Part shown: piece by piece, positions 119 to 13,042 of the stretch
Layout of the letters: each line of letters opens with the position of its first letter
Position numbering within the stretch: the first letter of the stretch is position 1
NCBI GenBank assembly: GCA_964462215.1
Contig: CAYWVZ010000002.1
Span: forward strand, 2,880 to 66,879
DNA from: an uncultured Candidatus Saccharibacteria bacterium
Lineage (GTDB): Bacteria; Patescibacteriota; Saccharimonadia; Saccharimonadales; JAUPVS01
Reading direction: 5' to 3'
Length of the DNA: 64,000 nt
Program-made: the position numbers and the translations under genes
Notes under the pieces: generated by a model
The model's input: only the letters and a program-made list of their open reading frames with translations
Told to the model about the DNA's origin: nothing
Databases searched by the model: none

Positions 119-700
119 TTGCGGCGAGGCCGATGCTACACTGTTTATATGAATGAAGACACGGTCACCGACTTGAAGCAATTTATCGCCGCTACGGTGT
201 CGCAGGAGCTGTCGCACCAGCTAACACCTTTCCGGCAGGAAATGCGGCAGGAGATGGCCGGGATGGAGCAAAGGCTTAACGGTAAAATCGACAGCGTAGA
301 CGTTAAGTTAAGTGATAAAATTGACAGTACAAGTGCCAAGTTGAGCGCTAAGATCGACAGAGTTGAGGCTGGGCTAAACGCTAAGATCGACAATGTGGAT
401 ACCAGGTTGAGTGATAAGATCGACGGCGTGGACGCTAAGTTGAGCGCTAAGATTGATGATGTAGACACTAGACTGAGTGCTAAGATTGATGATGTAGACA
501 CTAGACTGAGTGCTAAGATAGACGGGGTGGACGCCAGATTGAGCGACAAGATTGACGGGGTGGACGCTAAGTTGAGCGATAAAATTGACAATCTTTCAGC
601 CTATGTGGGCGAGGCACTGGATGCCACCAATGACGACAATGATAAGCGATTCAAAAACCACGAGCGGCGTATCCGCAAGTTCGAAAAGGTAGCTGCCTAG
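119..700 (+). CDS. Hendecad-repeat protein. About 10 tandem 11-residue repeats K-I-D-x-V-D-x-(K/R)-L-S-x follow a roughly 50-aa N-terminus. Alternative start at 149 (MNEDT).
   Basis: ORF translation shows KIDSVDVKLSD / KIDGVDAKLSA / KIDDVDTRLSA repeats, with a basic C-terminal tail KRFKNHERRIRKFEK. The matching 33-bp DNA tandem repeat includes two identical adjacent units. Confidence 0.6.
   Translation: MRRGRCYTVYMNEDTVTDLKQFIAATVSQELSHQLTPFRQEMRQEMAGMEQRLNGKIDSVDVKLSDKIDSTSAKLSAKIDRVEAGLNAKIDNVDTRLSDKIDGVDAKLSAKIDDVDTRLSAKIDDVDTRLSAKIDGVDARLSDKIDGVDAKLSDKIDNLSAYVGEALDATNDDNDKRFKNHERRIRKFEKVAA
284..595 (+). repeat. Tandem 33-bp coding repeat array of about 9.5 units that encodes the hendecad repeats. 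Units 6 and 7 are identical.
   Basis: Directly visible periodicity aagat(c/t)gac...(g/a)ttgag(c/t)g. The exact duplicate actgagtgctaagattgatgatgtagacactag occurs twice in tandem at about 472-537. Confidence 0.8.
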
Positions 701-2952
701 GCTTTTTTGTTGGCCGGTTTTTTGTCGGCCGTGCCGTTTTTGGCTGCCGGCTTGGCTTGAGGGGCGGCGGCCTGCTTGGCCGTATCTGTTACAAGCAGCT
801 TGCGCTTGGGGAAGCTAAAGCCGAAGGTACTCCCCTTGCCCTCTTCGCTCTTGAAGATGATGGCGCCGCCCTGGGCGATAATCACCTTTTTGGCCATAAA
901 CAGGCCTAAGCCCGTGCCGTCAGGACGGGCCTTGCGGGCATTAGCCGCGCGGTAAAACTTAGTAAACAGATGTGGCTGCTCGTGCTTAGGTACGCCCAAG
1001 CCAGTGTCTACCACTGTAAATTCAATGCTGTCGGGCCTGTCGGCCAGGCTGACGGTGATAGTGCCGCCGCTCGGCGTGTAATAAATGGCATTGTCGACGA
1101 AGTTCATAATTACCTGGCGGGTCTTGGTTTCGTCGAGGTTAAGCAGCGGGAAGCTCTTGGGCTTCTGGTAGGCCAGCTTCAGGCCGCGGCCCTTGGCCGT
1201 CTCGATTAGCTGGTCAATCTCGCTGTCAACCACTTCGGACAGGTTGGTCGGCTTGGCTTCGATAATAAACTTGCCGGTCTTCAGGCGCGAGACGTTCAAG
1301 AGGTCGGCAATCAAAAACACCATGCGCTGCGAGCTAATAAACGACTGGTCGAGCAGTTTGCGCTGCTGCGGCGTGATCTTGCCGGCATCGCCCTCCAGCA
1401 CCATACTGACATAGCCCTTAACAGAGGTCAGCGGCGTCCTGAGTTGGTGCGACGCCATACTGATAAAGTCGTCTTTGGTTTCGTCCAGTTGCTTGAGCTT
1501 CTCGTTAGTCTTGCGCAACTGGCGGGTGGCGGTGTCGACCTTCTCTTGCAAAGTGACGTTGAAGTTCTGGATCTCCTCAAAGCGCTGTGCATTCTGTAAC
1601 GCCACTGCTAGTTCGTTGGTAGCGATATTCAGAAGTTGAACATCTTGGCTATTATAAATATTACCGCTCTTCTTCGGCCCTAAGATTAAATAACCCACAG
1701 TTTTGCTCTTCGTAATAAGCGGTGCAACGACACTAATATCTCCCTGCCTTAGGACTTCGTGTAATATATCTTTGCCCTCCTCGATCTCACTGTAAACCGT
1801 TATTCTTTTTCCTGTGCGGCCTAGCGCTTCTACTAGATCCTTTGGGGTTTGTATTTCCCATTCCTGTCCCATGAAGGTTTCGCGACTCAGATCGCCCTGT
1901 GCGCTATACAGTAAAAAGGTTGCATGGGTTGGCTTTAGTGCTTCTACTAAAATGTCCAGTGCACCCTTCTGTAGCTTACGAGGGCTAACGTTATTCACGA
2001 TAACATTGCTTATCTTATTCAAGACTTTCTGTGCGTCATAAGAATCCTTGTAGAATATCCTTGTAGATACTTTGTTGAAAAACTGCACCAGGGGATGAAA
2101 CGTAATTGAGACCATCAGTAATATAAGAATAAAGAGTACTGTACTGTACGTATTTGCTTGTCGCGTCTGGAATATTGTGTTGCCAAAAACTAAAACGGTT
2201 GTTGATATATATAGAACCGAGAAGAACCCTATCGTAAAAAGATAGCTTGTTGATCGTATGATAGTTGCTCGAATGTCAAAAAGTTTATAACGGGCAATGG
2301 CGTTAAGCGAAAAAGCTACAAAAATCAGTGAAAAGACCGGGCCAAGCCAAACCCACTGAGTTATGCCAAAAATAGGTAAAATCACATTCGTAATAATTGC
2401 TGGTGTGCCCGTTAAACTAGTTCCTAGCCAGAGGTTGCGAGCTTGGTAGTTTTTCTCTTGATTTTTACCTTTGGTATGTTTATTTAGAATCAGTGTACTT
2501 ACTTGGAAGTAGACGACGAAATACAGCGCATAAAAGACATAAAACAGTTTATTGGGATACAGGTTATTAAACAGCTGTTCGTTGAAACTAATCTGATACA
2601 AATTATTCCCTACAAAGAGTATCGCAGCATAAAGCACAAGCAAAAAGACCGGTAGTGAGTATATCGCGCGTGGTTTTCTATTAGTAAACAATAGACAAAA
2701 ATAAAATATGAAAAGGGTGGAAATCATCGGAGCGACTAAGAACAACAAGTACCCTATTGTTACTATTGTGGGGGACTGGGAAAATGACATAATGGCATCT
2801 CCAAGAGCCCATACCACAGCTAAAAGAGAGAAGATTGTAAAATACCTGTAAACAGACTGTTTACGCTGTATGGTCAGTTGGAAAAAAATGATAGCAAATG
2901 CAAGGTCAATCAATGCTGTGCCTAGGAGCACGCTAAGAATAAGTATCTTCAC
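697..2952 (-). CDS. Sensor histidine kinase. The N-terminus is a multi-pass membrane domain of about 7 TM, followed by a central GAF-like region, a HisKA H-box, HATPase_c, and a Lys/Ala-rich C-terminal tail.
   Basis: H-box MASHQLRTPLTSVKGYV. ATPase N/G boxes NFVDNAIYYTPSGG...DTGLGVP...GTGLGLFMAKK. Many hydrophobic segments in the first ~330 aa. Confidence 0.85.
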   Translation of the reverse strand: MKILILSVLLGTALIDLAFAIIFFQLTIQRKQSVYRYFTIFSLLAVVWALGDAIMSFSQSPTIVTIGYLLFLVAPMISTLFIFYFCLLFTNRKPRAIYSLPVFLLVLYAAILFVGNNLYQISFNEQLFNNLYPNKLFYVFYALYFVVYFQVSTLILNKHTKGKNQEKNYQARNLWLGTSLTGTPAIITNVILPIFGITQWVWLGPVFSLIFVAFSLNAIARYKLFDIRATIIRSTSYLFTIGFFSVLYISTTVLVFGNTIFQTRQANTYSTVLFILILLMVSITFHPLVQFFNKVSTRIFYKDSYDAQKVLNKISNVIVNNVSPRKLQKGALDILVEALKPTHATFLLYSAQGDLSRETFMGQEWEIQTPKDLVEALGRTGKRITVYSEIEEGKDILHEVLRQGDISVVAPLITKSKTVGYLILGPKKSGNIYNSQDVQLLNIATNELAVALQNAQRFEEIQNFNVTLQEKVDTATRQLRKTNEKLKQLDETKDDFISMASHQLRTPLTSVKGYVSMVLEGDAGKITPQQRKLLDQSFISSQRMVFLIADLLNVSRLKTGKFIIEAKPTNLSEVVDSEIDQLIETAKGRGLKLAYQKPKSFPLLNLDETKTRQVIMNFVDNAIYYTPSGGTITVSLADRPDSIEFTVVDTGLGVPKHEQPHLFTKFYRAANARKARPDGTGLGLFMAKKVIIAQGGAIIFKSEEGKGSTFGFSFPKRKLLVTDTAKQAAAPQAKPAAKNGTADKKPANKKA

Positions 2953-3025: not shown

Positions 3026-4468
3026 CTATACTTCCTCAGCTCGCCCGTTTCGTAGTGTTTGTAACGGTGCTGCCGAAAAGCCCATTTCTGCACATAGAGC
3101 GCCTATTTTTCGTACTTTGTCACCTGTTATTTCTTCTGTAACTCGAAGGTCTTCGTTATTACTATAATGGAGCACGGCACCTTCAACGCAACAGCCATAT
3201 GCTTGGCTTAATTTCAAAGGCCCCATGCCTCCGTAATTGAAACGTGTACCGGTCACTGCACCAAAGTCGGTAGGGTCTTCAGCCACGACGCCCACATGAA
3301 GGCCGCCATAAGCCTCAACTTGTTCGCTTGCAATAGCTGCCGGCTGGCTGTCATCTGCGTAGGCTCTTCCAACTAGGTCGCCTTTTTCAAGTCCAATTTT
3401 CTGCAGGTCTACGCCCTTGGTAATAGCCGATACTGTAATTCCTCCAAAGCGGAGTAATGAGGCCGTATCAGGAGAAGCAATAACCCTGTTATTTCCGTAT
3501 CTTTCTCTCAGTGTGTCCGCCTTTTGTTGGAGCACACCCTTGTGTCTATCGAATATGGCGACTTGACTGTCAGGGTGCTGTGCCAAGAGAGTATCGGCTG
3601 CTGCAAAGCCTATGCCGCCGACACCGAGTACGCCAAGGCGATCGACGTATTGATCATCAACCCTTTTCTCCTCTAGCAGTCTGCGTACGACATCTGCAAT
3701 CAACCAGGTGGTACCGCCATGTCCAGTGGTAACCTCAATACCGGGATAAGAATACGCGGCGCCATATCCGGTGTGCTTTGGCAGAAGAGCTGCCAGGCTC
3801 ATCAGTTTTACCCCGAGCCTTTCCTTCGCAAACCACGAAGTTTCTTGAGCTACCTGAAGGCCTATCTCAAAACCATTCTGGCCATTCTTTTTACTGTCCT
3901 TTAGAAGGTTTAGGAATAATGGTGAAAAGATCATGGTGCCGCCGCCGTTTTGGTGATCTTCTCCGTAGTAGTCAAGTACAAACGGGGGGAGTCCCACCAT
4001 TACACGTTGGGCGGATGGACTGTCCACGTACTTCAATAGCGGTATACAGCCGACTGTTTCTTTTCGGTAATCACAAGCGGAGAATTCACTGCCGTAGTCC
4101 GGCTTTCTCTCTACTCTTGTTGCTGCCACAAATGCGAATGAGCCACTCTGACGATAAGGATCTCGTGTACCTTCGTACACGCCAAAAACTTCCTCTATAA
4201 AATCCTGTGATCGGTGAATATCGACAGGATCAACTGGGATACCTTTACTTTCAAGTATGGCGAGTGTTGCTTCAAATTTGCGCTGAAAATAGTCTCGTTC
4301 AAAACCCTTACCCTCGCCAACGCTGGCATCAGAATTCCAGTAGCGGAGCGTGCCTCCGTACTCAGCCATGGCCTGATCTAGCTCTTCTTCAACATTAGCC
4401 CCTGGGGGAAGCTCCCCTTCAGCCATGAAGCTTAAGTGGTTTATGGATTCCTGGTTTGCGAGTGCCAT
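3026..4468 (-). CDS. Hypothetical protein with a Rossmann-type NAD(P)-binding motif (VLGVGGIGFAAA) in the C-terminal half. The family is not recognised.
   Basis: GxGxxG motif followed by an acidic residue (IFDRH). No other recognisable signature. Confidence 0.45.
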   Translation of the reverse strand: MALANQESINHLSFMAEGELPPGANVEEELDQAMAEYGGTLRYWNSDASVGEGKGFERDYFQRKFEATLAILESKGIPVDPVDIHRSQDFIEEVFGVYEGTRDPYRQSGSFAFVAATRVERKPDYGSEFSACDYRKETVGCIPLLKYVDSPSAQRVMVGLPPFVLDYYGEDHQNGGGTMIFSPLFLNLLKDSKKNGQNGFEIGLQVAQETSWFAKERLGVKLMSLAALLPKHTGYGAAYSYPGIEVTTGHGGTTWLIADVVRRLLEEKRVDDQYVDRLGVLGVGGIGFAAADTLLAQHPDSQVAIFDRHKGVLQQKADTLRERYGNNRVIASPDTASLLRFGGITVSAITKGVDLQKIGLEKGDLVGRAYADDSQPAAIASEQVEAYGGLHVGVVAEDPTDFGAVTGTRFNYGGMGPLKLSQAYGCCVEGAVLHYSNNEDLRVTEEITGDKVRKIGALCAEMGFSAAPLQTLRNGRAEEV

Positions 4469-4674
4469 TACTTACCTTTCTTCTCGCTTAAATGTCTGTT
4501 GAAAATAAAAAGCCGCCCGCTCGCCCCTGTTGATATACAAAGGCGACTGGACGGATTTTATCTTCTAAAGTACTGATTGCAATATTACTACAAAAGCGTC
4601 AATATGTCAAGCATTTCCGGAATGGTTTCGCGGGGAGGTTCTCTTCTGCTTGATGCTTGAGTTAGAATATAGTT

Positions 4675-5163
4675 ATGATTCTGTACCACGCTTCGACCGA
4701 CAAACAACTGTCGGTTATCAAGCCGCAGCCAACACTGAGTCACGACAAATACATCGGCGATTTCGTTTTTGCGACAGTGGACAAGAAAATGGCGCTGATG
4801 TACCTGGTGCCAAAAGGTATTCCGACCCTGATGAACCCCAAGGGACGTAACCCAAATATAGTTATGTGTACGACGGTATCAGATTTTGTAGCTAAAGATG
4901 GTGGTGGTGCAATTTATGAACTTCCGGGCAAAGACTTCGTAAGAACCCCACAAGAGGGGCTCAGCGACTATGAGATGGTTAGCCGCAATGCCATAAAACC
5001 ACTAAGAAAAGAGGTGTACGCAAATACGCTGGATGCGCTAGCGGCTGCGAATATAACGATACGATTCACCGATGAGGCAACGTTCAACAAACTGATAAAA
5101 AGTCCTCAACAGGCAAGCATGATAGAGGCGCTCGATGTATATAGACCGGATGGCATCAGTTAG
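4675..5163 (+). CDS. Hypothetical 162-aa protein. The N-terminal LYHAS motif resembles the LYHGT strand of Tpt1/KptA-type ADP-ribosyltransferase-fold proteins. Speculative.
   Basis: MILYHASTDKQ...FVFAT...AIYELPG pattern (His-containing strand 1, S/T strand, late Glu). AT-richer than the flanks. Confidence 0.35.
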   Translation: MILYHASTDKQLSVIKPQPTLSHDKYIGDFVFATVDKKMALMYLVPKGIPTLMNPKGRNPNIVMCTTVSDFVAKDGGGAIYELPGKDFVRTPQEGLSDYEMVSRNAIKPLRKEVYANTLDALAAANITIRFTDEATFNKLIKSPQQASMIEALDVYRPDGIS

Positions 5164-5326
5164 GCCTTCAGTTTTTCAACCAACCTAATACGAAAGCCTC
5201 CGAGAGGTTATCCTAAAAGTGTCCTCAACCTATCTGAACCTGGACAGGTTGCGGAAAAGGCCGGTCTTGGAACCTGATATGGCTCTATATACCGGTCATG
5301 AACCTTTGCGCTATAATTTACGCAGT

Positions 5327-5902
5327 ATGAAGGCTATTTGTTTCGCAACATCGAATTCAGAGAAAATACAAATTGCACAGACCATATGTTCGGAAGCCGG
5401 TTTGGCCATAAAGCCAGTTTCACTTGATGTTGACGAGATTCAGGGCGAAGATCCGGAAGTAATCGTGCGAGACAAAGCACTGCGAGCTTATCAGCAACTC
5501 GGTATGCCTGTAGTGGTGAGCGACGATACCTGGGATATTAGGGCACTCAATGGTTTCCCGGGTGCATACATGAAGTCGATCAACTATTGGTTTAGACCGG
5601 AAGATTTTTTAAGACTAATGCATGGGGTCGAGGATAGGCACATAACCCTTCATCAGTACCTTGCATACACAGACGGAAACGTAACGGAAGTTTTTAAGAA
5701 CGATATTGAAGGGCAGATTATTGACAAGGCTCGTGGCAAAAACGAGAAATCACCAAACATGACAGTCATTGTACTTGATTCTGACAATGGCAAAACTATA
5801 GCTGAGGTTTTCGAACAAGGTGAGATAGCCGTAGTTACTCGCTATAAAAACCGACCAGATGCATGGCATGGATTCGTTGAATGGTATAAAAAAATCCAAT
5901 AG
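5327..5902 (+). CDS. Ham1/ITPase-family non-canonical purine NTP pyrophosphatase (RdgB-like).
   Basis: Motifs ATSNSEK, VVSDDTWDIRALNGFPGAYMKS. Start chosen at internal Met 5327 (MKAICFATSN). Confidence 0.7.
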   Translation: MKAICFATSNSEKIQIAQTICSEAGLAIKPVSLDVDEIQGEDPEVIVRDKALRAYQQLGMPVVVSDDTWDIRALNGFPGAYMKSINYWFRPEDFLRLMHGVEDRHITLHQYLAYTDGNVTEVFKNDIEGQIIDKARGKNEKSPNMTVIVLDSDNGKTIAEVFEQGEIAVVTRYKNRPDAWHGFVEWYKKIQ

Positions 5903-6044
5903 CACAAATACTTACTGGATAGCCTGTAAAATATGTGCTCTTGGCTCAGCTTGCTGGTCGTGGAGCTATTTTTCGCACTGTTCGTATCTGTTACATAAGA
6001 TACATATGCGTGGATTTTGCATTGTGATTTGACACAATAGAGAT

Positions 6045-6212
6045 ATGAATAGTAGCAAAGTTATTAATGTAGATGAAAGCAGCCCGGAGTTCCTGCTTGA
6101 GCTGGAGCGACGCATTAAACTTGCTAAAAATCCTAAAAATCGTATACCGCTTGAGCGAGCCAAGAAAGATATTCTAAAAAAGTACCAGGATCTTGCTGGC
6201 GTAAAAGTATAG
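6045..6212 (+). CDS. Small 55-aa antitoxin-like ORF (charged, helical), followed by a start-less remnant ORF at about 6216-6335.
   Basis: MNSSKVINVDESSPEFLLELERRIKLAKNPKNRIPLERAKKDILKKYQDLAGVKV. Below the 60-aa threshold of the ORF track. Resemblance to type II antitoxins is only general. Confidence 0.3.
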   Translation: MNSSKVINVDESSPEFLLELERRIKLAKNPKNRIPLERAKKDILKKYQDLAGVKV

Positions 6213-6329
6213 CGTTAATCTTACAGAAGATGCCGAGAATGACATTGCCGTGTTTGAAGATAACCCGGATGTGCAGGAGCGGGTACACTCAGGGCTGCAG
6301 TCCATAAATCACTGGTTTACCCCTGTGAT

Positions 6330-6827
6330 ATGATAGTACCTATGCAGAAATTTACTCAGAAATACACAATCATATGTTTATTAGAAGACGCGGAAGAAGG
6401 TTATGAATATCCTTCAGACAATTGGCCGCTACACACTACGCTGGCAGATACATTTGCAATCGATCAGGGCATTGATAAGCTCAAGAATCTTCTCGATGAA
6501 ATAGCTACAAAAGCAAACTCCACTTCAGCGGAAGCTACTCACAATGAGTACTTTGGTCCTGATAATATCAAAGTCACTGTGCTTAAAAAGAATGAAGGAA
6601 TCAGGGGCTTGCATTACGAAATTGTAAATTCTCTTGAACGTTTAGGTGTTACGTTTAATGATCCGCAGTACACGAAAGATGGATTTAAGCCCCATGCAAC
6701 AGCCCAGAAACATGCCGAGGTAAAAGTCGGAGAAAATGTAAATATTAACAATCTTGCAATAGTAGACATGTTCCCGGGCAAAGATGCCTATCAAAGGAAG
6801 ATTCTTAAGAAAGCTAGTCTAGGCTAA
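6330..6827 (+). CDS. 2H phosphoesterase superfamily protein (LigT / 2'-5' RNA ligase / cyclic phosphodiesterase-like).
   Basis: Two H-x-T-x motifs: PLHTTLAD and KPHATAQK. Confidence 0.7.
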   Translation: MIVPMQKFTQKYTIICLLEDAEEGYEYPSDNWPLHTTLADTFAIDQGIDKLKNLLDEIATKANSTSAEATHNEYFGPDNIKVTVLKKNEGIRGLHYEIVNSLERLGVTFNDPQYTKDGFKPHATAQKHAEVKVGENVNINNLAIVDMFPGKDAYQRKILKKASLG

Positions 6828-6881
6828 CTTGTAGAGAATTTTGCTGTTTTTCGGATAGTTTGCTACAACTTAGGCATAGAT

Positions 6882-7265
6882 ATGTCGGATAACACAAAAA
6901 CCATCGCCATCGTCGAAGACGAGCCCGCCATCTGCGAGATGTACCGGTTCCGGTTGGCGGCGGCCGGTTTTACGGTGGTCACAGCCCGTGACGGGCAGCA
7001 GGGGCTAGAGGTATGCCAAAAACACCGGCCGGATTTGATTTTGCTCGACCTGCGCATGCCGGTAATGAGCGGCGATGAGATGCTCGAACAGTTACGCCAG
7101 ACAGATTGGGGAGCTAAGGCACGGGTGGTGATTTTGACTAATATCAGCCGCGATGAGGCGCCGCACGGCTTGCGGCTGCTGCATGTTGACCGCTACGTCG
7201 TCAAAGCCCACCACACCCCCGGCCAAATCACCCAAATCGTCAAAGAAATCTTAAATCTTGCGTAA
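6882..7265 (+). CDS. Single-domain response regulator (CheY-like receiver only).
   Basis: IAIVEDEP...LILLDLRMP...VVILTN...VVKAHHTP. Acidic pocket, phospho-Asp, Thr and Lys are all present. No output domain. Confidence 0.85.
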   Translation: MSDNTKTIAIVEDEPAICEMYRFRLAAAGFTVVTARDGQQGLEVCQKHRPDLILLDLRMPVMSGDEMLEQLRQTDWGAKARVVILTNISRDEAPHGLRLLHVDRYVVKAHHTPGQITQIVKEILNLA

Positions 7266-7316
7266 GTCTTTTAATAATTGTTGCCAGGCCGTTGTATAGG
7301 GGCGTACTATAAAGGC

Positions 7317-7691
7317 ATGGCCGCCCGTATTCTTATCATCGAGGATGACGAAGCTATCGCTCAGATGTACCGCCTCAAGTTTGAGGCCGAGGGCTATGCG
7401 GTAGAGACCGCCCGCAACGGCTTGCTGGGGCTGGAGGCCGCCCAAAAGATCAAACCTCAAGTTATTCTGCTTGACCTGATGATGCCCGAAATGAACGGCG
7501 ACGAAATGTTGGCCAAGCTGCGCGCCACCGATTGGGGCAAAGATATCGAGGCCGTGGTTCTGACCAACATCAGCGAACAAGACATCCCGCAGCACCTGGA
7601 CAAGCTGGGTGTAGCCGCCGTGCTGCAAAAGGCCTATCACACCCCCAGCCAGGTGGTAGAGATCGTCAAAGGCATCCTTCAGGCGTCATAA
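7317..7691 (+). CDS. Single-domain response regulator, paralog 2.
   Basis: ILIIEDDEAIAQMYRLKFE...VILLDLMMPEMNGDEML. Start at internal Met 7317. Confidence 0.85.
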   Translation: MAARILIIEDDEAIAQMYRLKFEAEGYAVETARNGLLGLEAAQKIKPQVILLDLMMPEMNGDEMLAKLRATDWGKDIEAVVLTNISEQDIPQHLDKLGVAAVLQKAYHTPSQVVEIVKGILQAS

Positions 7692-7708
7692 AACAGTTCC
7701 GATACCGT

Positions 7709-8227
7709 TTATACATTGTGTCTTGTAAAGCACTCTTTGGTGTTATCATTATCAGGTTCAAGTATATATACGGTGTCAAAAGTTTCTTTGTCCTTGCGTG
7801 ATTGGTACACAATTCGGTGACGCTCAATCTCCTTAAAAAATGGGGTTGGGTAATCGTTGTTGTCTATAGTTAGAAGCGCAGAGGGCTTGGCAATACTGAA
7901 AGCCGCATTAATGACGTCGCCCGTTGGTATTTTTCTGCCGCGAGTACTTGTGTGATGGGTGTATAGATAGTGGAGTCTTGCTGCAAAATCCATAAGTGGT
8001 TTAGAAAGCGTTACGTATATCATATTTTGTTCAATATATTCCTCAATCTTATCTCTATGCGTTTTGTCTGAGCTGCGGGTGACTTCATACTTAGTAAATC
8101 CTGTCACGACAAATTTATACTGCCGCTCAAGTTCACTAAAAAGACGCACGTAGGCGGCAGTTTGAGTTTCCGTTAACGCATGAGAAATAATATTGGCGTC
8201 AACCAACAGAAGTTGTTGTGTGGCCAT
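7709..8227 (-). CDS. PIN-domain-like protein (VapC-type nuclease fold), stand-alone.
   Basis: N-terminal LLLVDANIISH (first acidic residue). C-terminal LLTIDNNDYP matches the PIN T-x-D-x-x-D motif. No cognate antitoxin ORF found upstream. Confidence 0.45.
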   Translation of the reverse strand: MATQQLLLVDANIISHALTETQTAAYVRLFSELERQYKFVVTGFTKYEVTRSSDKTHRDKIEEYIEQNMIYVTLSKPLMDFAARLHYLYTHHTSTRGRKIPTGDVINAAFSIAKPSALLTIDNNDYPTPFFKEIERHRIVYQSRKDKETFDTVYILEPDNDNTKECFTRHNV

Positions 8228-8431
8228 ACATCTAACTGGTAGCTTTGATCAAGCCTTTAGAAGGACTGGGTCTCGAGGACTTCGGCGCAATTAGTGAATT
8301 TTTGGGGATTGAAACGTCCATGAGCACCATCCTTTCGTTTCAATTCTATAGTAACATAATGTATCTACTTCGGCTTGAGTATAGTTGGTCGCTTGTCATT
8401 CCTTCTCTGTTATCGTACTATTGGTAGTAAT

Positions 8432-8803
8432 ATGGCAACTAAAGTCGCGATTGTTGAGGATGACCAAGCTATTGCCCAAATGTACCGTATCAAGTTCGAG
8501 AGCGAGGACTACGAGGTTGAAACGGCCGAAAACGGCAAACTCGGTTTAGAGCTGGCTGAAAACATGAAGCCGGATATCATCTTGCTTGACCTGATGATGC
8601 CCGAAATGAACGGCGACGAAATGTTAGCCAAACTGCGAGCTACACCGTGGGGTAAACACACCAAGGTGGTCATTTTGACTAACATGGGCGAGCAAGAAAT
8701 CCCCGACGAAGTGAAGAAGTTGGGCGTAGCGGCGGTTATCCTGAAAGCCGACATGACACCGCGCCAGGTAGCCGAGCTGGTCAAAGAGCAGCTGGCTGCT
8801 TAA
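8432..8803 (+). CDS. Single-domain response regulator, paralog 3. Near-identical at DNA level to paralog 2 over the LDLMMPEMNGDEMLAKLRAT segment.
   Basis: VAIVEDDQAIAQMYRIKFE...IILLDLMMPEMNGDEML...VVILTN...ILKADMTP. Confidence 0.85.
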   Translation: MATKVAIVEDDQAIAQMYRIKFESEDYEVETAENGKLGLELAENMKPDIILLDLMMPEMNGDEMLAKLRATPWGKHTKVVILTNMGEQEIPDEVKKLGVAAVILKADMTPRQVAELVKEQLAA

Positions 8804-8821: not shown

Positions 8822-10162
8822 ATGAAGATCGCTATTTTAGGCTATGGCAGCCAGGGGCAGGCGGCGCTGGAGTATTGGAACACGCCGGATAACCAGCTGA
8901 CGGTTTGCGACCAGAATGCCGAACTGCAGTTGCCGGCCGGTGTAGCCAGCCGGTTGGGAGCAGATTACTTGCGCGAGCTCAATGAGTTTGACCTGCTTGT
9001 GCGCACCCCGATTATCCACCCCCGCCAGATTAGCGAGGCTAACCCGGACGCACCGGACATCTTAGCTAAAGTCACCACCGTAACCAATGAGTTTTTCAAG
9101 GTGTGCCCGACCAAACACATCGTTGGCGTCACCGGTACCAAGGGCAAAGGTACGACGTCTACCCTGATTGCTAAGATTTTGGAAGCTGCCGGACACCGTG
9201 TCCATTTGGGCGGTAATATCGGCATACCGCCGTTGGAGCTGCTGCAGAACGAGATACAAGCTGACGACTGGGTGGTGTTGGAGCTGGCTAACTTCCAGTT
9301 GATCGACCTGGCGTTTTCACCGCCCGTGGCAGTATGTGTGGCGGTTGAACCGGAGCACCTGGACTGGCACGCCGACCTTAACGAATACCTGACAGCCAAG
9401 CAGCAGATGTTTATGCACCAGGCAGCGGGCGATTTGGCCGTGTATAATCGGCTCAGCCGGTATTCTGAGCAGGTTGCCGCTGTTTCAAAAGGCACGAAAG
9501 TATCGTACGAAGTGCCGGCAGTCGGCACCGAACCGCACGAAACCACCGGTGCTTACGTTCGCGGTGACACAATCTACATGAATGATGAAGCAGTTTGCCG
9601 AATAGCCGACGTAGCCTTGCCCGGACGGCATAACGTGCAAAATGTTTGTGCTGCCGTGGCTGCAGTATGGGAGACAATCGGCGGTAAGACCGATGTGATC
9701 ACCGAAGTGGTGCGAACCATGAAGAGCCTGCCCCACCGTTTGGAACCAGTGCGCACACTGGACGACGTTACTTATTATGACGATTCGTTGGGCACTACTC
9801 CGGAAACGGCTATTGCCGCCATTGAGGCTTTTGACGAACCCAAAGTACTGCTCTTAGGCGGATCAGATAAAGGAACAAGTTTTGATACGTTAGCTCAAGT
9901 AGTAGCCAAAAATAACATACGGTCTGTAGTTATGATTGAAGGAGACACTGCTCCTAAAATCGTCTCTTCTTTACAAGCGGCAGGTTATGACCGAATCGTA
10001 TCCGGCGGCACGACTATGCGGGCGGTCGTCGAAGCGGCACAAGCCCAGGCTCAAAAGGGTGATGTGGTGCTGCTCTCTCCAGCCTGCGCCAGCTTTGGCC
10101 TATTTAAAGACTATAAAGACCGGGGTGAGCAATTTAAGGCCGCTGTTCAAGCACTCGTTTAA
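8822..10162 (+). CDS. murD: UDP-N-acetylmuramoylalanine--D-glutamate ligase MurD.
   Basis: MKIAILGYGSQG..., GVTGTKGKGTTSTL P-loop, Mur ligase middle/C domains. Confidence 0.9.
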   Translation: MKIAILGYGSQGQAALEYWNTPDNQLTVCDQNAELQLPAGVASRLGADYLRELNEFDLLVRTPIIHPRQISEANPDAPDILAKVTTVTNEFFKVCPTKHIVGVTGTKGKGTTSTLIAKILEAAGHRVHLGGNIGIPPLELLQNEIQADDWVVLELANFQLIDLAFSPPVAVCVAVEPEHLDWHADLNEYLTAKQQMFMHQAAGDLAVYNRLSRYSEQVAAVSKGTKVSYEVPAVGTEPHETTGAYVRGDTIYMNDEAVCRIADVALPGRHNVQNVCAAVAAVWETIGGKTDVITEVVRTMKSLPHRLEPVRTLDDVTYYDDSLGTTPETAIAAIEAFDEPKVLLLGGSDKGTSFDTLAQVVAKNNIRSVVMIEGDTAPKIVSSLQAAGYDRIVSGGTTMRAVVEAAQAQAQKGDVVLLSPACASFGLFKDYKDRGEQFKAAVQALV

Positions 10163-10781
10163 GCTGCGTAATCACCGGTTGTTCGGGCTGTAATACTGTG
10201 GCCCGCCCGGCTGCTACCTGACGAATAATATCTTCAATCCAATGATAGTGGGTACACCCCAATACGATAACGTCGGCACCTGCCTCACAGACCGCATCAA
10301 CACGTTGCCGGATCTGTTCGCGATCAACAGTATTGGTTTCGATCATATATGACCAATCGCTGCAATCCGGTTCAAGCACCTGTATGCCCTTGGCGTAGGT
10401 GTCTTTGAGCCAGGCGTAGCGTTTACTGGCCAGGGTAGTGGGCGTGGCACAAACAGCGATAATGCCTGTTTTAGTTGCCTCGGCGGCCGGCTTAACCATT
10501 GGCTCCATGGCAATAAGCGGTACTGGTACTTTTGCGCGCAATTGGTCAATGAGGGTGGTGCTAACGGTATTACAGGCAATCACGATAACATCACACTTTT
10601 CACTTAACGTGTTAAGTATTGGCAGAACTAATGTATAGAGCTCCTCTGGTGATTTAGTGCCATACGGTACGTGTTTGGTATCGTTGACGAACAATACTTT
10701 TGCGTCAGGCATGGCTTTCTCGATGGCGTTAGCCACCGATTTCCCCCCGATACCAGAGTCAAATACTCCAATAGTGGTCAT
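10134..10781 (-). CDS. murI: Glutamate racemase MurI.
   Basis: IGVFDSGIGG, ACNTVST, LGCTHYH motifs. Start at 10781 with GGAGG RBS. Convergent 29-bp overlap with murD. Confidence 0.9.
   Translation of the reverse strand: MTTIGVFDSGIGGKSVANAIEKAMPDAKVLFVNDTKHVPYGTKSPEELYTLVLPILNTLSEKCDVIVIACNTVSTTLIDQLRAKVPVPLIAMEPMVKPAAEATKTGIIAVCATPTTLASKRYAWLKDTYAKGIQVLEPDCSDWSYMIETNTVDREQIRQRVDAVCEAGADVIVLGCTHYHWIEDIIRQVAAGRATVLQPEQPVITQLKRVLEQRP
10602..10617. repeat. 16-bp palindrome ACTTAACGTGTTAAGT (copy A, inside murI).
   Basis: Read directly from the sequence. The flank ...TATTG is shared with copy D. Confidence 0.9.
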
Positions 10782-12317: not shown

Positions 12318-12394
12318 GGGCCATTAGCTCAGCTGGTTAGAGCACCTGCCTCTTAAGCAGGGTGTCCAGGGTTCGAGTCCCTGATGGCCCTCCA
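12318..12394 (+). tRNA. tRNA-Lys (anticodon CTT), 3' CCA encoded.
   Basis: GGGCCATTAGCTCAGCTGGTTAGAGCACCTGCCTCTTAAGCAGGGTGTCCAGGGTTCGAGTCCCTGATGGCCCTCCA. Cloverleaf folds by eye. Anticodon loop CTCTTAA. Confidence 0.85.
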
Positions 12395-12451: not shown

Positions 12452-13042
12452 ATGAAAAGAATATTATTATTCTCAGTACTCACCGAAAGTAACCGTAGAT
12501 CCGTTTTAGGCCAACTATTCCCCTCAGCCATACAAAATAAAGTATTCTCCTACATGCCAAGTAATGGTGTTAAAGACTCCGGGCCCTATATCGAGCAATG
12601 GCGCGCAATCGCTCAAGAATATGGCGCGGGATTCAATGTAATCGATAACTCTGTATGCGATACCGAGGAACAAAGAAAACTACTATCTTCAAACATTATC
12701 CTCATAAGTGGCGGAAATACTTTTAGCCTTTTGCAAAACTTACGAGAATCTGGCTTAGACAAATCAATTGGAGAGTTTATAGAAAAGACGGACTTTGTAC
12801 TTGCGGGTTTTAGCGCTGGAGCACTTGTATTGACGCCAACTATCAAAATATGTAATCTGCCTAACTTCGATGAAAACCTGGTCAAACTTGAGGACTTTAG
12901 TGGGTTAGATATCGTTGACTTTGAAGTATTCCCGCACTATGACAAGCGTCTACAAAAGGCCACATTAGAGAATTACAGAAAAACTACTGCTAATAGAGTG
13001 AACGAAATTACGGATGAGGATTATATAAGTATAGATCGCTAG
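12452..13042 (+). CDS. Peptidase S51 family (dipeptidase E / cyanophycinase-like).
   Basis: ILISGGNTFSLL and GFSAGALV motifs. Confidence 0.75.
   Translation: MKRILLFSVLTESNRRSVLGQLFPSAIQNKVFSYMPSNGVKDSGPYIEQWRAIAQEYGAGFNVIDNSVCDTEEQRKLLSSNIILISGGNTFSLLQNLRESGLDKSIGEFIEKTDFVLAGFSAGALVLTPTIKICNLPNFDENLVKLEDFSGLDIVDFEVFPHYDKRLQKATLENYRKTTANRVNEITDEDYISIDR

Follow-up and report, generated by a model that had tools for sequence, protein, structure and literature searches.

The stretch analysed here is a 64-kb window (64,000 nucleotides, within which all positions are given) of the genome of an uncultured Candidatus Saccharibacteria bacterium, and the element in question is a block of small genes that occupies positions 4469-6880. 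This block is the lowest-GC 2.4-kb stretch of the window, with 42.8% GC for a window mean of 51.7% (the standard deviation among windows of the same size is 3.7, and no 2.4-kb window lies below it). It contains four small genes, which we refer to as g1 to g4, all in the same orientation, plus a dead ParE toxin gene (Table 1). An earlier note on this DNA, made from the letters alone, had singled it out as a lower-GC block of four co-oriented small genes, and the sliding-window analysis confirms that description. The spacers of 200-400 bp given at that time are in fact shorter. When the starts of g2 and g4 are set by alignment with their homologs, at ATG 5327 (MKAICFATSN...) and ATG 6342 (MQKFTQKY...) respectively, the spacers measure 206, 163, 142 and 129 bp, with 54 bp ahead of the first response regulator. 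The open reading frame (ORF) of g2 is open from 5219, and the longer starts that this would allow (5219 or 5279) have no homolog support. The block matches nothing in Rfam and has no tRNA in its vicinity, and its promoter-like and terminator-like sites show no excess over shuffled sequences. Homologs of g1 and g4, together with 41 species-representative loci, come nearly all from Candidatus Saccharibacteria/Saccharimonadales, with a few from other Patescibacteria.

Table 1. Genes and remnants of the low-GC block and its two immediate flanks. NTP, nucleoside triphosphate.
Feature	Position	Strand	Evidence
Upstream flank, outside the block: 480-aa protein, gene divergent from g1	3026-4468	-	Weak Rossmann-type matches
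g1: 162-aa protein (MILYHAS...), DUF6886-related	4675-5163	+	Pfam DUF6886, E 2.7e-10
g2: divergent Ham1-like NTP pyrophosphatase, 191 aa	5327-5902	+	Pfam Ham1p_like (PF01725), 68.4 bits (cutoff 22.5)
g3: antitoxin of 55 aa, orphaned from a type II pair with a ParE-type toxin	6045-6212	+	Metagenomic relatives with overlapping ParE
ParE toxin pseudogene (starts with TTG at 6193; codon 4 is TAA)	6193-6333	+	tblastn to ParE
g4: 161-aa 2H phosphoesterase (ORF open from 6330)	6342-6827	+	Pfam 2_5_RNA_ligase2 (PF13563), 30.3 bits (cutoff 27)
Downstream flank: first of three single-domain response-regulator paralogs	6882-7265	+	Pfam Response_reg, E 1e-20

The low GC of the block is not shared equally by its genes. 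Scored against the 60 genes of the window, the GC content at third codon positions (GC3) yields z-scores of -0.9 for g1, -1.9 for g2, -2.4 for g3 and -2.6 for g4, the last being the minimum of the whole set. The GC shift therefore belongs to g2-g4 and not to g1: the compositional islet is made of g2-g4, and g1 is unremarkable. Native composition is found again in the first response regulator, which has a GC content of 56% and a GC3 of 0.70.

The surroundings of g1 were then compared with those of its homologs in loci fetched from other genomes (designated by L numbers). In L003 the gene order is w10781-w10137-MurD-RR3-g1 ... HK, where HK is a histidine kinase and RR a response regulator, and in L002 it is HK ... 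g1 ... RR-RR3; g2-g4 are absent from both. The two blocks share the genes that surround g1 in the window, minus g2-g4, RR1, RR2 and a PIN gene. In addition, the GC content of the g1 gene follows that of its host in seven other genomes. Because synteny with HK, RR and MurD is kept in relatives that have no g2-g4, and because its GC tracks the host, g1 is a native gene of this lineage. The four genes thus differ in their presence among relatives, g1 being syntenic where g2-g4 are missing. As a consequence, the horizontal origin proposed at first for the block as a whole holds for g2-g4, on grounds of composition, synteny and the GC of their homologs, and has to be withdrawn for g1.

In three loci of more distant Saccharibacteria g1 is followed by a convergent pair of genes coding for proteins of ~320 and ~70 aa (L004, 6341-7569; L086, 6478-7678; L088, 6479-7721), and L089 (6851-7711) has a reduced pair in which the larger protein measures 207 aa. 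Neither protein belongs to a Pfam family, and the pair is missing beside g1 in the window.

The composition of g2-g4 matches that of their homologs in lower-GC genomes. The GC content of g4 is 39%, as in its closest 2H homologs (67-71% identity, 37-39% GC, in loci of ~40% GC); g2, with 43% GC, is close to a 67% identical ortholog that has 42% and sits in a locus of 44% GC; and the loci bearing the toxin-antitoxin (TA) module to which g3 is related have 37-49% GC. Since 2H genes elsewhere lie only ~2 points below their flanks, the 12-point deficit of g4 is not intrinsic to the family. This GC match to low-GC homologs, along with the absence of g2-g4 from the g1/RR/MurD block of relatives, supports the view that g2-g4 reached this ~52% GC genome by transfer from Saccharibacteria of lower GC. 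On balance, and by no means strongly, we favour the view that the block is a mosaic rather than a module, in which nucleotide housecleaning genes and TA debris have been inserted beside the native g1.

The gene g4 had been recognized as a 2H phosphoesterase by its two H-x-T-x motifs, and this assignment proved correct: besides the Pfam match, the motifs (HTTL and HATA) are invariant in 49 homologs (H31, H118, T120). The family comprises >152 homolog clusters, including some from complete genomes of oral TM7, and is essentially confined to Saccharibacteria/Patescibacteria, its members having ~165 aa and being found in near-complete genomes of 0.9-1.0 Mb. An affiliation of g4 to either Acb1 or LigT, the two clades between which it was initially to be placed, finds no support. 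Comparison of the family profile with the PDB yielded a single 2H match, B. subtilis YjcG (2d4g), which is weak (E 0.036), as is the match of g4 to PRK13679 in NCBIfam (E 0.09); there was no match to Acb1 or LigT in the PDB by profile, nor to Acb1 by single sequence. On this weak match, YjcG appears to be the nearest to g4 among 2H enzymes, and the two have in common the H-x-T-x motifs, a length of ~160-170 aa and the Pfam family 2_5_RNA_ligase2. No resemblance of g4 to Acb1 or to viral proteins could be detected: it matches no PHROG and has no relatives in viral contigs. Its candidacy as an Acb1-type nuclease directed against the cyclic-oligonucleotide-based antiphage signalling system (CBASS) was discarded for want of any PHROG, PDB or viral-contig relationship.

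In several loci from metagenome-assembled genomes (L048, at 9983-10485, and also L050, L051 and L053) the 2H gene is apparently frameshifted, appearing as two overlapping tblastn segments that lie in different frames; these genes are either pseudogenes or the product of assembly errors. L048 is labelled Limnocylindria, but its genes of Saccharibacteria type suggest that it was wrongly binned.

The genomic context of the 2H family varies between genomes. Among the 150 genes nearest to 2H in 40 loci, NUDIX is the most frequent Pfam family (9), ahead of Ham1, HD, Exo_endo_phos, NTP_transf_2 and PfkB. Genes for transposases, resolvases and relaxases are also present, and HIT and nucleotide kinase genes are seen in L006 and L008. 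Ham1-like genes are direct neighbours of 2H in L006/7 (divergently), L042 and L047 (~20 bp downstream), and are found within ~5 kb of it in L014 (5 kb away, the 67% identical ortholog of g2) and L033. Including the window, such proximity is seen in 6 of ~44 loci for ~0.4-0.9 expected, the latter being our own estimate, which assumes random placement of one or two Ham1 copies per ~1-Mb genome. The 2H-adjoining Ham1-like genes form two subgroups, both devoid of the purine motifs of the family. Among the genes of the block, this Ham1-2H pairing is the only one that recurs elsewhere.

These counts bear on the possibility that there is nothing but juxtaposition at this locus, that is, that four unrelated small genes came to lie in a recombination-prone gap, Ham1 and 2H being as unlinked as the others. 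Such a view is consistent with the highly variable context of 2H genes (115 different Pfam families among the 150 neighbours), with the lack of a nearby Ham1 gene in most 2H loci, with the presence of a TA module between g2 and g4, and with the fact that g2 and g4 have their nearest relatives in different genomes. However, it does not sit well with a Ham1-like gene placed directly beside 2H in three other distant lineages, in differing orientations and drawn from two Ham1 subgroups, and within ~5 kb of it in two more, which exceeds chance under reasonable assumptions. We consider pure juxtaposition unlikely, although it deserves more weight than the other alternatives discussed below.

The loci with the closest relatives of g4 share an unusual gene, located one gene downstream from 2H, for a ~550-aa protein that fuses a NUDIX domain to an S-adenosylhomocysteine-hydrolase-type NAD-binding domain (L006, 9149-10810; L008, 5835-7490; L007, 3165-4826). 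A cluster of His_Phos_1, NTP_transf_2 and Exo_endo_phos genes comes after it.

Membership of g2 in the Ham1 family, as proposed from the start, is borne out by its Pfam score, far above the cutoff, and by its motifs. It shares with the Ham1/ITPase/RdgB enzymes (Mj0226, human ITPA) the phosphate motif of GN..K type (SNSEK), the ExQ motif (EIQ), the catalytic Asp (SDD) and the NGFPG loop, and its best match in the PDB is Mj0226 (E 4e-17). Unlike these enzymes, it lacks the purine-recognition motifs GFG[WFY]D and SHR, which are replaced by EKSPNM and ...TRYKNRP... both in g2 and in those of its relatives that are linked to 2H; GFGFD persists in the unlinked paralog L006b. The ITPA sequence served as the reference for this comparison of motifs, and the alignment with Mj0226 agrees with it for the first motif. 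The score of g2 is also far under every equivalog cutoff of NCBIfam, the best being that of XTP/dITP diphosphatase (89.5 bits for a cutoff of 203). Of the name Ham1 ITPase (inosine triphosphatase) given to this gene in the earlier note, the first half can hence be kept, and the second is not established, as the purine-recognition motifs are missing. The subgroup to which g2 belongs is Patescibacterial (SDDTW...W[FW]xPE) and tends to sit near 2H genes. We predict from these motifs that g2 is catalytically active with an altered substrate range.

The second-best PDB match of g2 is KomB, the HAM1-like protein of the Kongming system (E 7e-14), and it relates to another of the initial proposals, namely that the block is an acquired cassette that degrades signal nucleotides and thereby acts in anti-defence or in the modulation of immunity. 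In such a cassette, the 2H enzyme would, like Acb1, cut messengers that are cyclic oligonucleotides or 2'-5'-linked, and Ham1 would destroy base-modified NTP messengers, such as dITP, which could help an epibiont against immune signalling related to its host or to phages. The foreign composition of g2-g4 and their TA debris are compatible with this idea, and so are the transposases, resolvases and relaxases that sometimes flank 2H genes elsewhere. It is known that noncanonical NTPs serve as messengers in immunity (10.1101/2024.12.20.629578), a role against nucleotide signalling has been predicted for 2H domains (PMC5512222), and the altered base pocket of g2 leaves its substrate open. On the other hand, none of g1-g4 has a match in PADLOC (whose 2023 version predates Kongming) or in PHROGs, relatives of g1 and g4 were not found in 2.9 M viral contigs, and the 2H family is conserved and widespread in Saccharibacteria, with YjcG and not Acb1 as its nearest kin. 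Furthermore, the residue pattern of g2 is the reverse of that of KomB. In the defensive HAM1 the catalytic Asp is changed to His, the pocket is retained and a SIR2 protein (KomC) is an obligatory partner (10.1101/2024.12.20.629578). The enzyme encoded by g2 has Asp at this position, has lost the pocket motifs, and has neither a SIR2 nor a deaminase neighbour, and a Kongming-type identity was rejected for it. An anti-defence cassette is, in our judgement, very improbable.

As for g3, it had been described as an antitoxin-like ORF followed by a start-less remnant of ~40 codons, and both parts of this description proved accurate. Taken alone, neither g3 nor the remnant matches any antitoxin or other family of Pfam or NCBIfam, even at E <= 10, and the identity of the remnant was recovered solely through the intact pair present in L048. 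In that locus a homolog of g3 (84% identical) is overlapped by an ORF of 117 aa that is a ParE toxin (Pfam ParE_toxin, PF05016, 27.8 bits for a cutoff of 23). Over the antitoxin gene and the opening codons of the toxin, the DNA of the window is ~88% identical to that of L048, and it diverges from there on. In tblastn the remnant, LLA*KYSVNLTEDAENDIA, aligns with residues 1-19 of ParE with 17/19 identities (E 3e-8). The homologous codons extend from 6193 to 6249 (19 codons) and include a TAA at 6202-6204, and the frame is open onward to a TGA at 6331-6333. We also considered that the tail of the remnant (AVFEDNPDV...) might stem from the loss of an internal segment, by which ParE codons ~19 and ~56 were brought together; this idea was not retained, as the identity covers only 11 nt and was not recovered by tblastn. 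By comparison with the L048 pair, g3 is an orphan antitoxin beside a dead ParE toxin.

A set of 28 metagenomic relatives of g3 (64-91% identity) could be gathered, ~20 of which are followed by an intact and overlapping ParE-like gene. With its small upstream antitoxin gene overlapping a ParE-family toxin, this organization resembles that of ParDE modules; it differs in that the toxin of the window is a pseudogene and that the 55-aa antitoxin falls in no described family (ParD/ribbon-helix-helix (RHH), Phd/YefM). Independent truncations of ParE, after codons ~7, 23, 29 and 36 or through an internal deletion, were found in L068, L071, L072/L073, L077 and L079, and these loci keep the 55-aa antitoxin intact (76-91% identical). 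With its toxin lost repeatedly and independently and its antitoxin conserved, this ParE-type module illustrates clearly how a TA pair decays in nature. The module lies beside a 2H gene in one other genome only (L048, = L067).

If the block is a mosaic, its assembly could be pictured as follows. The lineage would have gained ~1.7 kb of lower-GC DNA carrying g2 and g4 between g1 and the response-regulator/MurD block. A mobile ParE-type TA module would have settled between g2 and g4, and its toxin would later have died through a nonsense codon and the loss of everything past codon 19, leaving g3 behind; the order of these insertions is our tentative reconstruction. The product of g4 may open 2',3'-cyclic phosphates on nucleotides or RNA fragments released by metal-independent RNases, or act on related cyclic phosphodiesters, and that of g2 may hydrolyse aberrant (d)NTPs to monophosphates. 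Opening of 2',3'-cyclic phosphates is an established reaction class of 2H enzymes (PMC5512222). Both enzymes would then serve in salvage and housecleaning, alongside the NUDIX genes found next to 2H in other loci, in organisms that presumably make no nucleotides and live on scavenged nucleic acids. This is the case of a soil Saccharibacterium, which has no nucleotide synthesis, relies on scavenged DNA and RNA and carries ~20 MutT-type genes, an abundance that its authors ascribed to the damage of scavenged nucleotides (PMC6031116). That Ham1 enzymes of altered specificity and YjcG-like 2H enzymes recur together in salvage-dependent Patescibacteria would point to a nucleotide clean-up step that has not been described. 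The locus itself would be an ordinary one, with housekeeping-type nucleotide hydrolases and TA debris, all of known gene kinds, at a flexible spot of a reduced genome.

Several observations weigh against this reading. The closest relatives of g2 and g4 occur in different genomes, so that their acquisition as a single unit is unproven, and no genome of >80% identity was found with which the insertion could be dated. Other short patches of low GC exist in the window (for example 7709-8227 and 12452-13042), and low GC alone is no proof of transfer. NUDIX genes abound in these genomes, and against a rough base rate of 20 per ~1500 genes they are enriched only ~4-fold near 2H genes. The canonical motifs for hypoxanthine/xanthine recognition are missing in g2, for which the name ITPase is not established, and the substrates of both g2 and g4 are predictions made from their sequences. 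Finally, the adjacency of g1 and the 2H gene could be functional rather than accidental if g1 is an ADP-ribosyltransferase (ART).

An ART fold of the Tpt1/KptA type had indeed been proposed for g1. The g1 family is large: a profile search found >203 clusters of ~158 aa in Saccharibacteria/Patescibacteria, and an exhaustive search yielded 437 representative clusters overall, some of them within multidomain proteins. A Pfam scan of g1 itself matched DUF6886 only and no ART family, and DUF6886 is not mentioned in the literature. The AlphaFold2 (AF2) model of g1 built from 106 sequences (predicted local distance difference test (pLDDT) 94, predicted TM-score (pTM) 0.86) has a single high-probability fold match in the PDB according to Foldseek, which is Arr, the rifampin ADP-ribosyltransferase (probability 0.94, E 0.06, TM-score 0.38/0.43); the remaining PDB matches have probabilities of 0.12 or less each. 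An earlier model built from 14 sequences (pLDDT 75) had given no meaningful match in the PDB. In BFVD the fold matches of g1 are significant (E 2e-7, TM-score 0.57) but concern unnamed proteins of giant viruses or jumbo phages alone, among which are A0A5J6VI63 and A0A8A6C7F4. When 91 diverse relatives of g1 were scanned with Pfam, 74 matched DUF6886 and 12 matched ART-PolyVal (PF18760; best E 3.4e-4). The family next in rank was matched by 6 relatives and nearly all others by 1, which leaves ART-PolyVal as the sole recurrent family besides DUF6886.

At the level of sequence profiles, searches with g1 against PDB sequences gave nothing relevant, and the hhalign comparison of the g1 family with Arr was non-significant (Prob <= 1.6%, E 0.03-0.37). 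This comparison was set up against Arr-3 alone, against a five-member Arr alignment and with the broad g1 family against Arr; the Arr-3 query was confirmed to be 100% identical to annotated plasmid genes, and four divergent homologs were added to it. The segment GGAIYELP..F..TP of the g1 family aligned repeatedly in hhalign with GYIYIVEPTGPFEDDP of Arr.

The signature of ARTs of the H-Y-E type consists of a His, an aromatic-x10-aromatic motif and a Glu. In the broad g1 alignment (28% mean identity), H5 (consensus LYHGS), D75, G77, G78, Y81, F88 and E100 are conserved at >=90%, and the Saccharibacterial clade shows no variation at F32 and Y43, which are separated by 11 positions. These residues fit the H / aromatic-x10-aromatic / E signature, their equivalence being read from their positions in the sequence and not from a structural superposition. 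With Arr and ART-PolyVal, g1 would have in common a single domain of ~160 aa, an N-terminal beta-strand motif LYH[AG]S similar to the YHGT of Arr, an aromatic residue in a strand (F32) and another in a helix (Y43), an acidic residue in a later strand (E100), and the occurrence of its domain in a ParB-containing protein of polyvalent type. It differs from Arr in that the TM-score is ~0.4, that the sequence profiles show no significant similarity and that g1 has an extra C-terminal alpha/beta subdomain (~110-152), and from both Arr and ART-PolyVal in being a conserved chromosomal gene of Saccharibacteria, neither a resistance cassette nor an injected effector. These lines of support are individually weak though convergent. 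They lend moderate strength to the guess of an ART fold, and we think it rather likely that g1 belongs to the ART superfamily, probably as a minimal ADP-ribosyltransferase-like fold. If so, the whole DUF6886-related family gains a testable ART assignment, with H5 and E100 as candidate catalytic residues.

Kinship with Tpt1/KptA itself is another matter, and was rejected. There is no match to PF01885 and no conserved Arg column, and the His motif, at residue 5, leaves no room for an N-terminal lobe; the Arg-His-Arg-Arg tetrad and the N-terminal RNA-binding lobe of Tpt1/KptA are both missing from g1. What g1 would share with them is possibly the superfamily and, in this window, the vicinity of a 2H enzyme, Tpt1 and 2H enzymes being known to cooperate in RNA end healing (PMC9503650). 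The original proposal thus survives with moderate support as to the fold and fails as to the type.

If g1 is an ART, g1 and g4 might together form a module linked to NAD+ or ADP-ribose, for the processing of RNA ends or nucleotides, in which the ART-like g1 would use NAD+ to form an ADP-ribosylated or cyclic-phosphate product that g4 would process further. Its model is the succession of Tpt1/KptA and a 2H cyclic phosphodiesterase acting on ADP-ribose cyclic phosphate (Appr>p), with NUDIX-type enzymes taking part elsewhere. Arr as the only credible PDB match of the g1 model, the weak ART-PolyVal matches in 12/91 relatives and the conservation of H5, F32-x10-Y43 and E100 would all agree with it, as would the position of NUDIX as top neighbour of 2H genes. 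A network of ART, 2H and Nudix/Macro domains around ADP-ribose derivatives is established (PMC9503650). In addition, g1-like domains occur in fusions: P0289 (1232 aa) comprises ParB_N, a g1-like domain (704-847) and a LigT-type 2H domain (889-1019), P0291 joins a g1-like domain to an HD phosphohydrolase, P0287 to GNAT, and P0374 has one at the C-terminus of a surface-repeat protein of 1797 aa. The fusion of P0289 is only suggestive, because its architecture is that of ParB-containing polyvalent proteins, in which ART and 2H domains are independent effectors (PMC5512222).

The neighbourhoods argue against such a module. Outside the window, g1 has no 2H, Ham1 or NUDIX gene beside it in any of 9 further loci, and no g1 gene is found near 2H in 40+ 2H loci; the conserved neighbour of g1 is instead the pair coding for ~320 and ~70 aa. 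By the same counts, the four genes do not form a conserved cassette. Moreover, g1 and g4 are unlike in composition and evolutionary history, the block contains neither an RNA ligase nor a Macro gene, the profile-profile comparison with Arr is non-significant, and g1 has no Tpt1 features. We regard the NAD-linked module as unlikely, a little more so than mere juxtaposition. Slightly more doubtful again is the bolder proposal that the DUF6886-related family is an unrecognised clade of stand-alone ARTs acting on a small molecule or on a nucleic-acid end, with the juxtaposition of g1 and g4 being functional. Were this true, g1 could inactivate an antibiotic of the actinobacterial host in the manner of Arr; another option would be a Tpt1-like removal of phosphate, with the cyclic ADP-ribose phosphate produced being cleared by 2H and NUDIX enzymes.

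On the upstream side of the block, the divergent gene for the 480-aa protein has a GC3 z-score of -1.7, and its product contains a Rossmann-type GxGxxG segment. This protein has no Pfam match above threshold, only weak matches in the PDB (E 0.007), and no homolog in any of the related loci fetched. Further upstream is a gene for a 751-aa histidine kinase (697-2952, reverse strand).

On the downstream side, the first response regulator is followed by its paralogs at 7278-7691 and 8375-8803, also on the forward strand, and the products of the three are 48-82% identical to the response regulators located beside g1 in L002 and L003. Their paralogy accounts for a 48-nt direct repeat (7203-7250 and 7629-7676, 71%). 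Between the paralogs lies the PIN/VapC-like gene (7709-8227, reverse strand; 172 aa; NCBIfam VapC, E 2e-4; Pfam PIN, E 0.09), which has low GC, with a GC3 z-score of -2.2, and no evident antitoxin ORF in the 147 bp upstream. Because it is missing from the matching block of L002 and L003, it looks like a second small insertion near g2-g4.

The region from g1 to the PIN gene is bracketed exactly by an 18-nt inverted repeat (4577-4594 and 8421-8438, 89% complementary), the left arm of which lies in a stretch upstream of g1 that is conserved in L002, and the right arm over the start codon of RR3. Inversion of the 4577-8438 segment would restore the divergent g1-RR3 adjacency of L003. The repeat is nevertheless probably a chance coincidence, ~0.2-0.5 such pairs being expected.

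Farther downstream, a tRNA-Lys(CTT) gene (12318-12394) is directly followed by a low-GC gene on the forward strand (12452-13042; 39% GC, GC3 z-score of -2.3), whose product resembles peptidase E of the S51 type (PDB 3l4e, E 1e-15). It may be another acquired gene, in this case at a tRNA.

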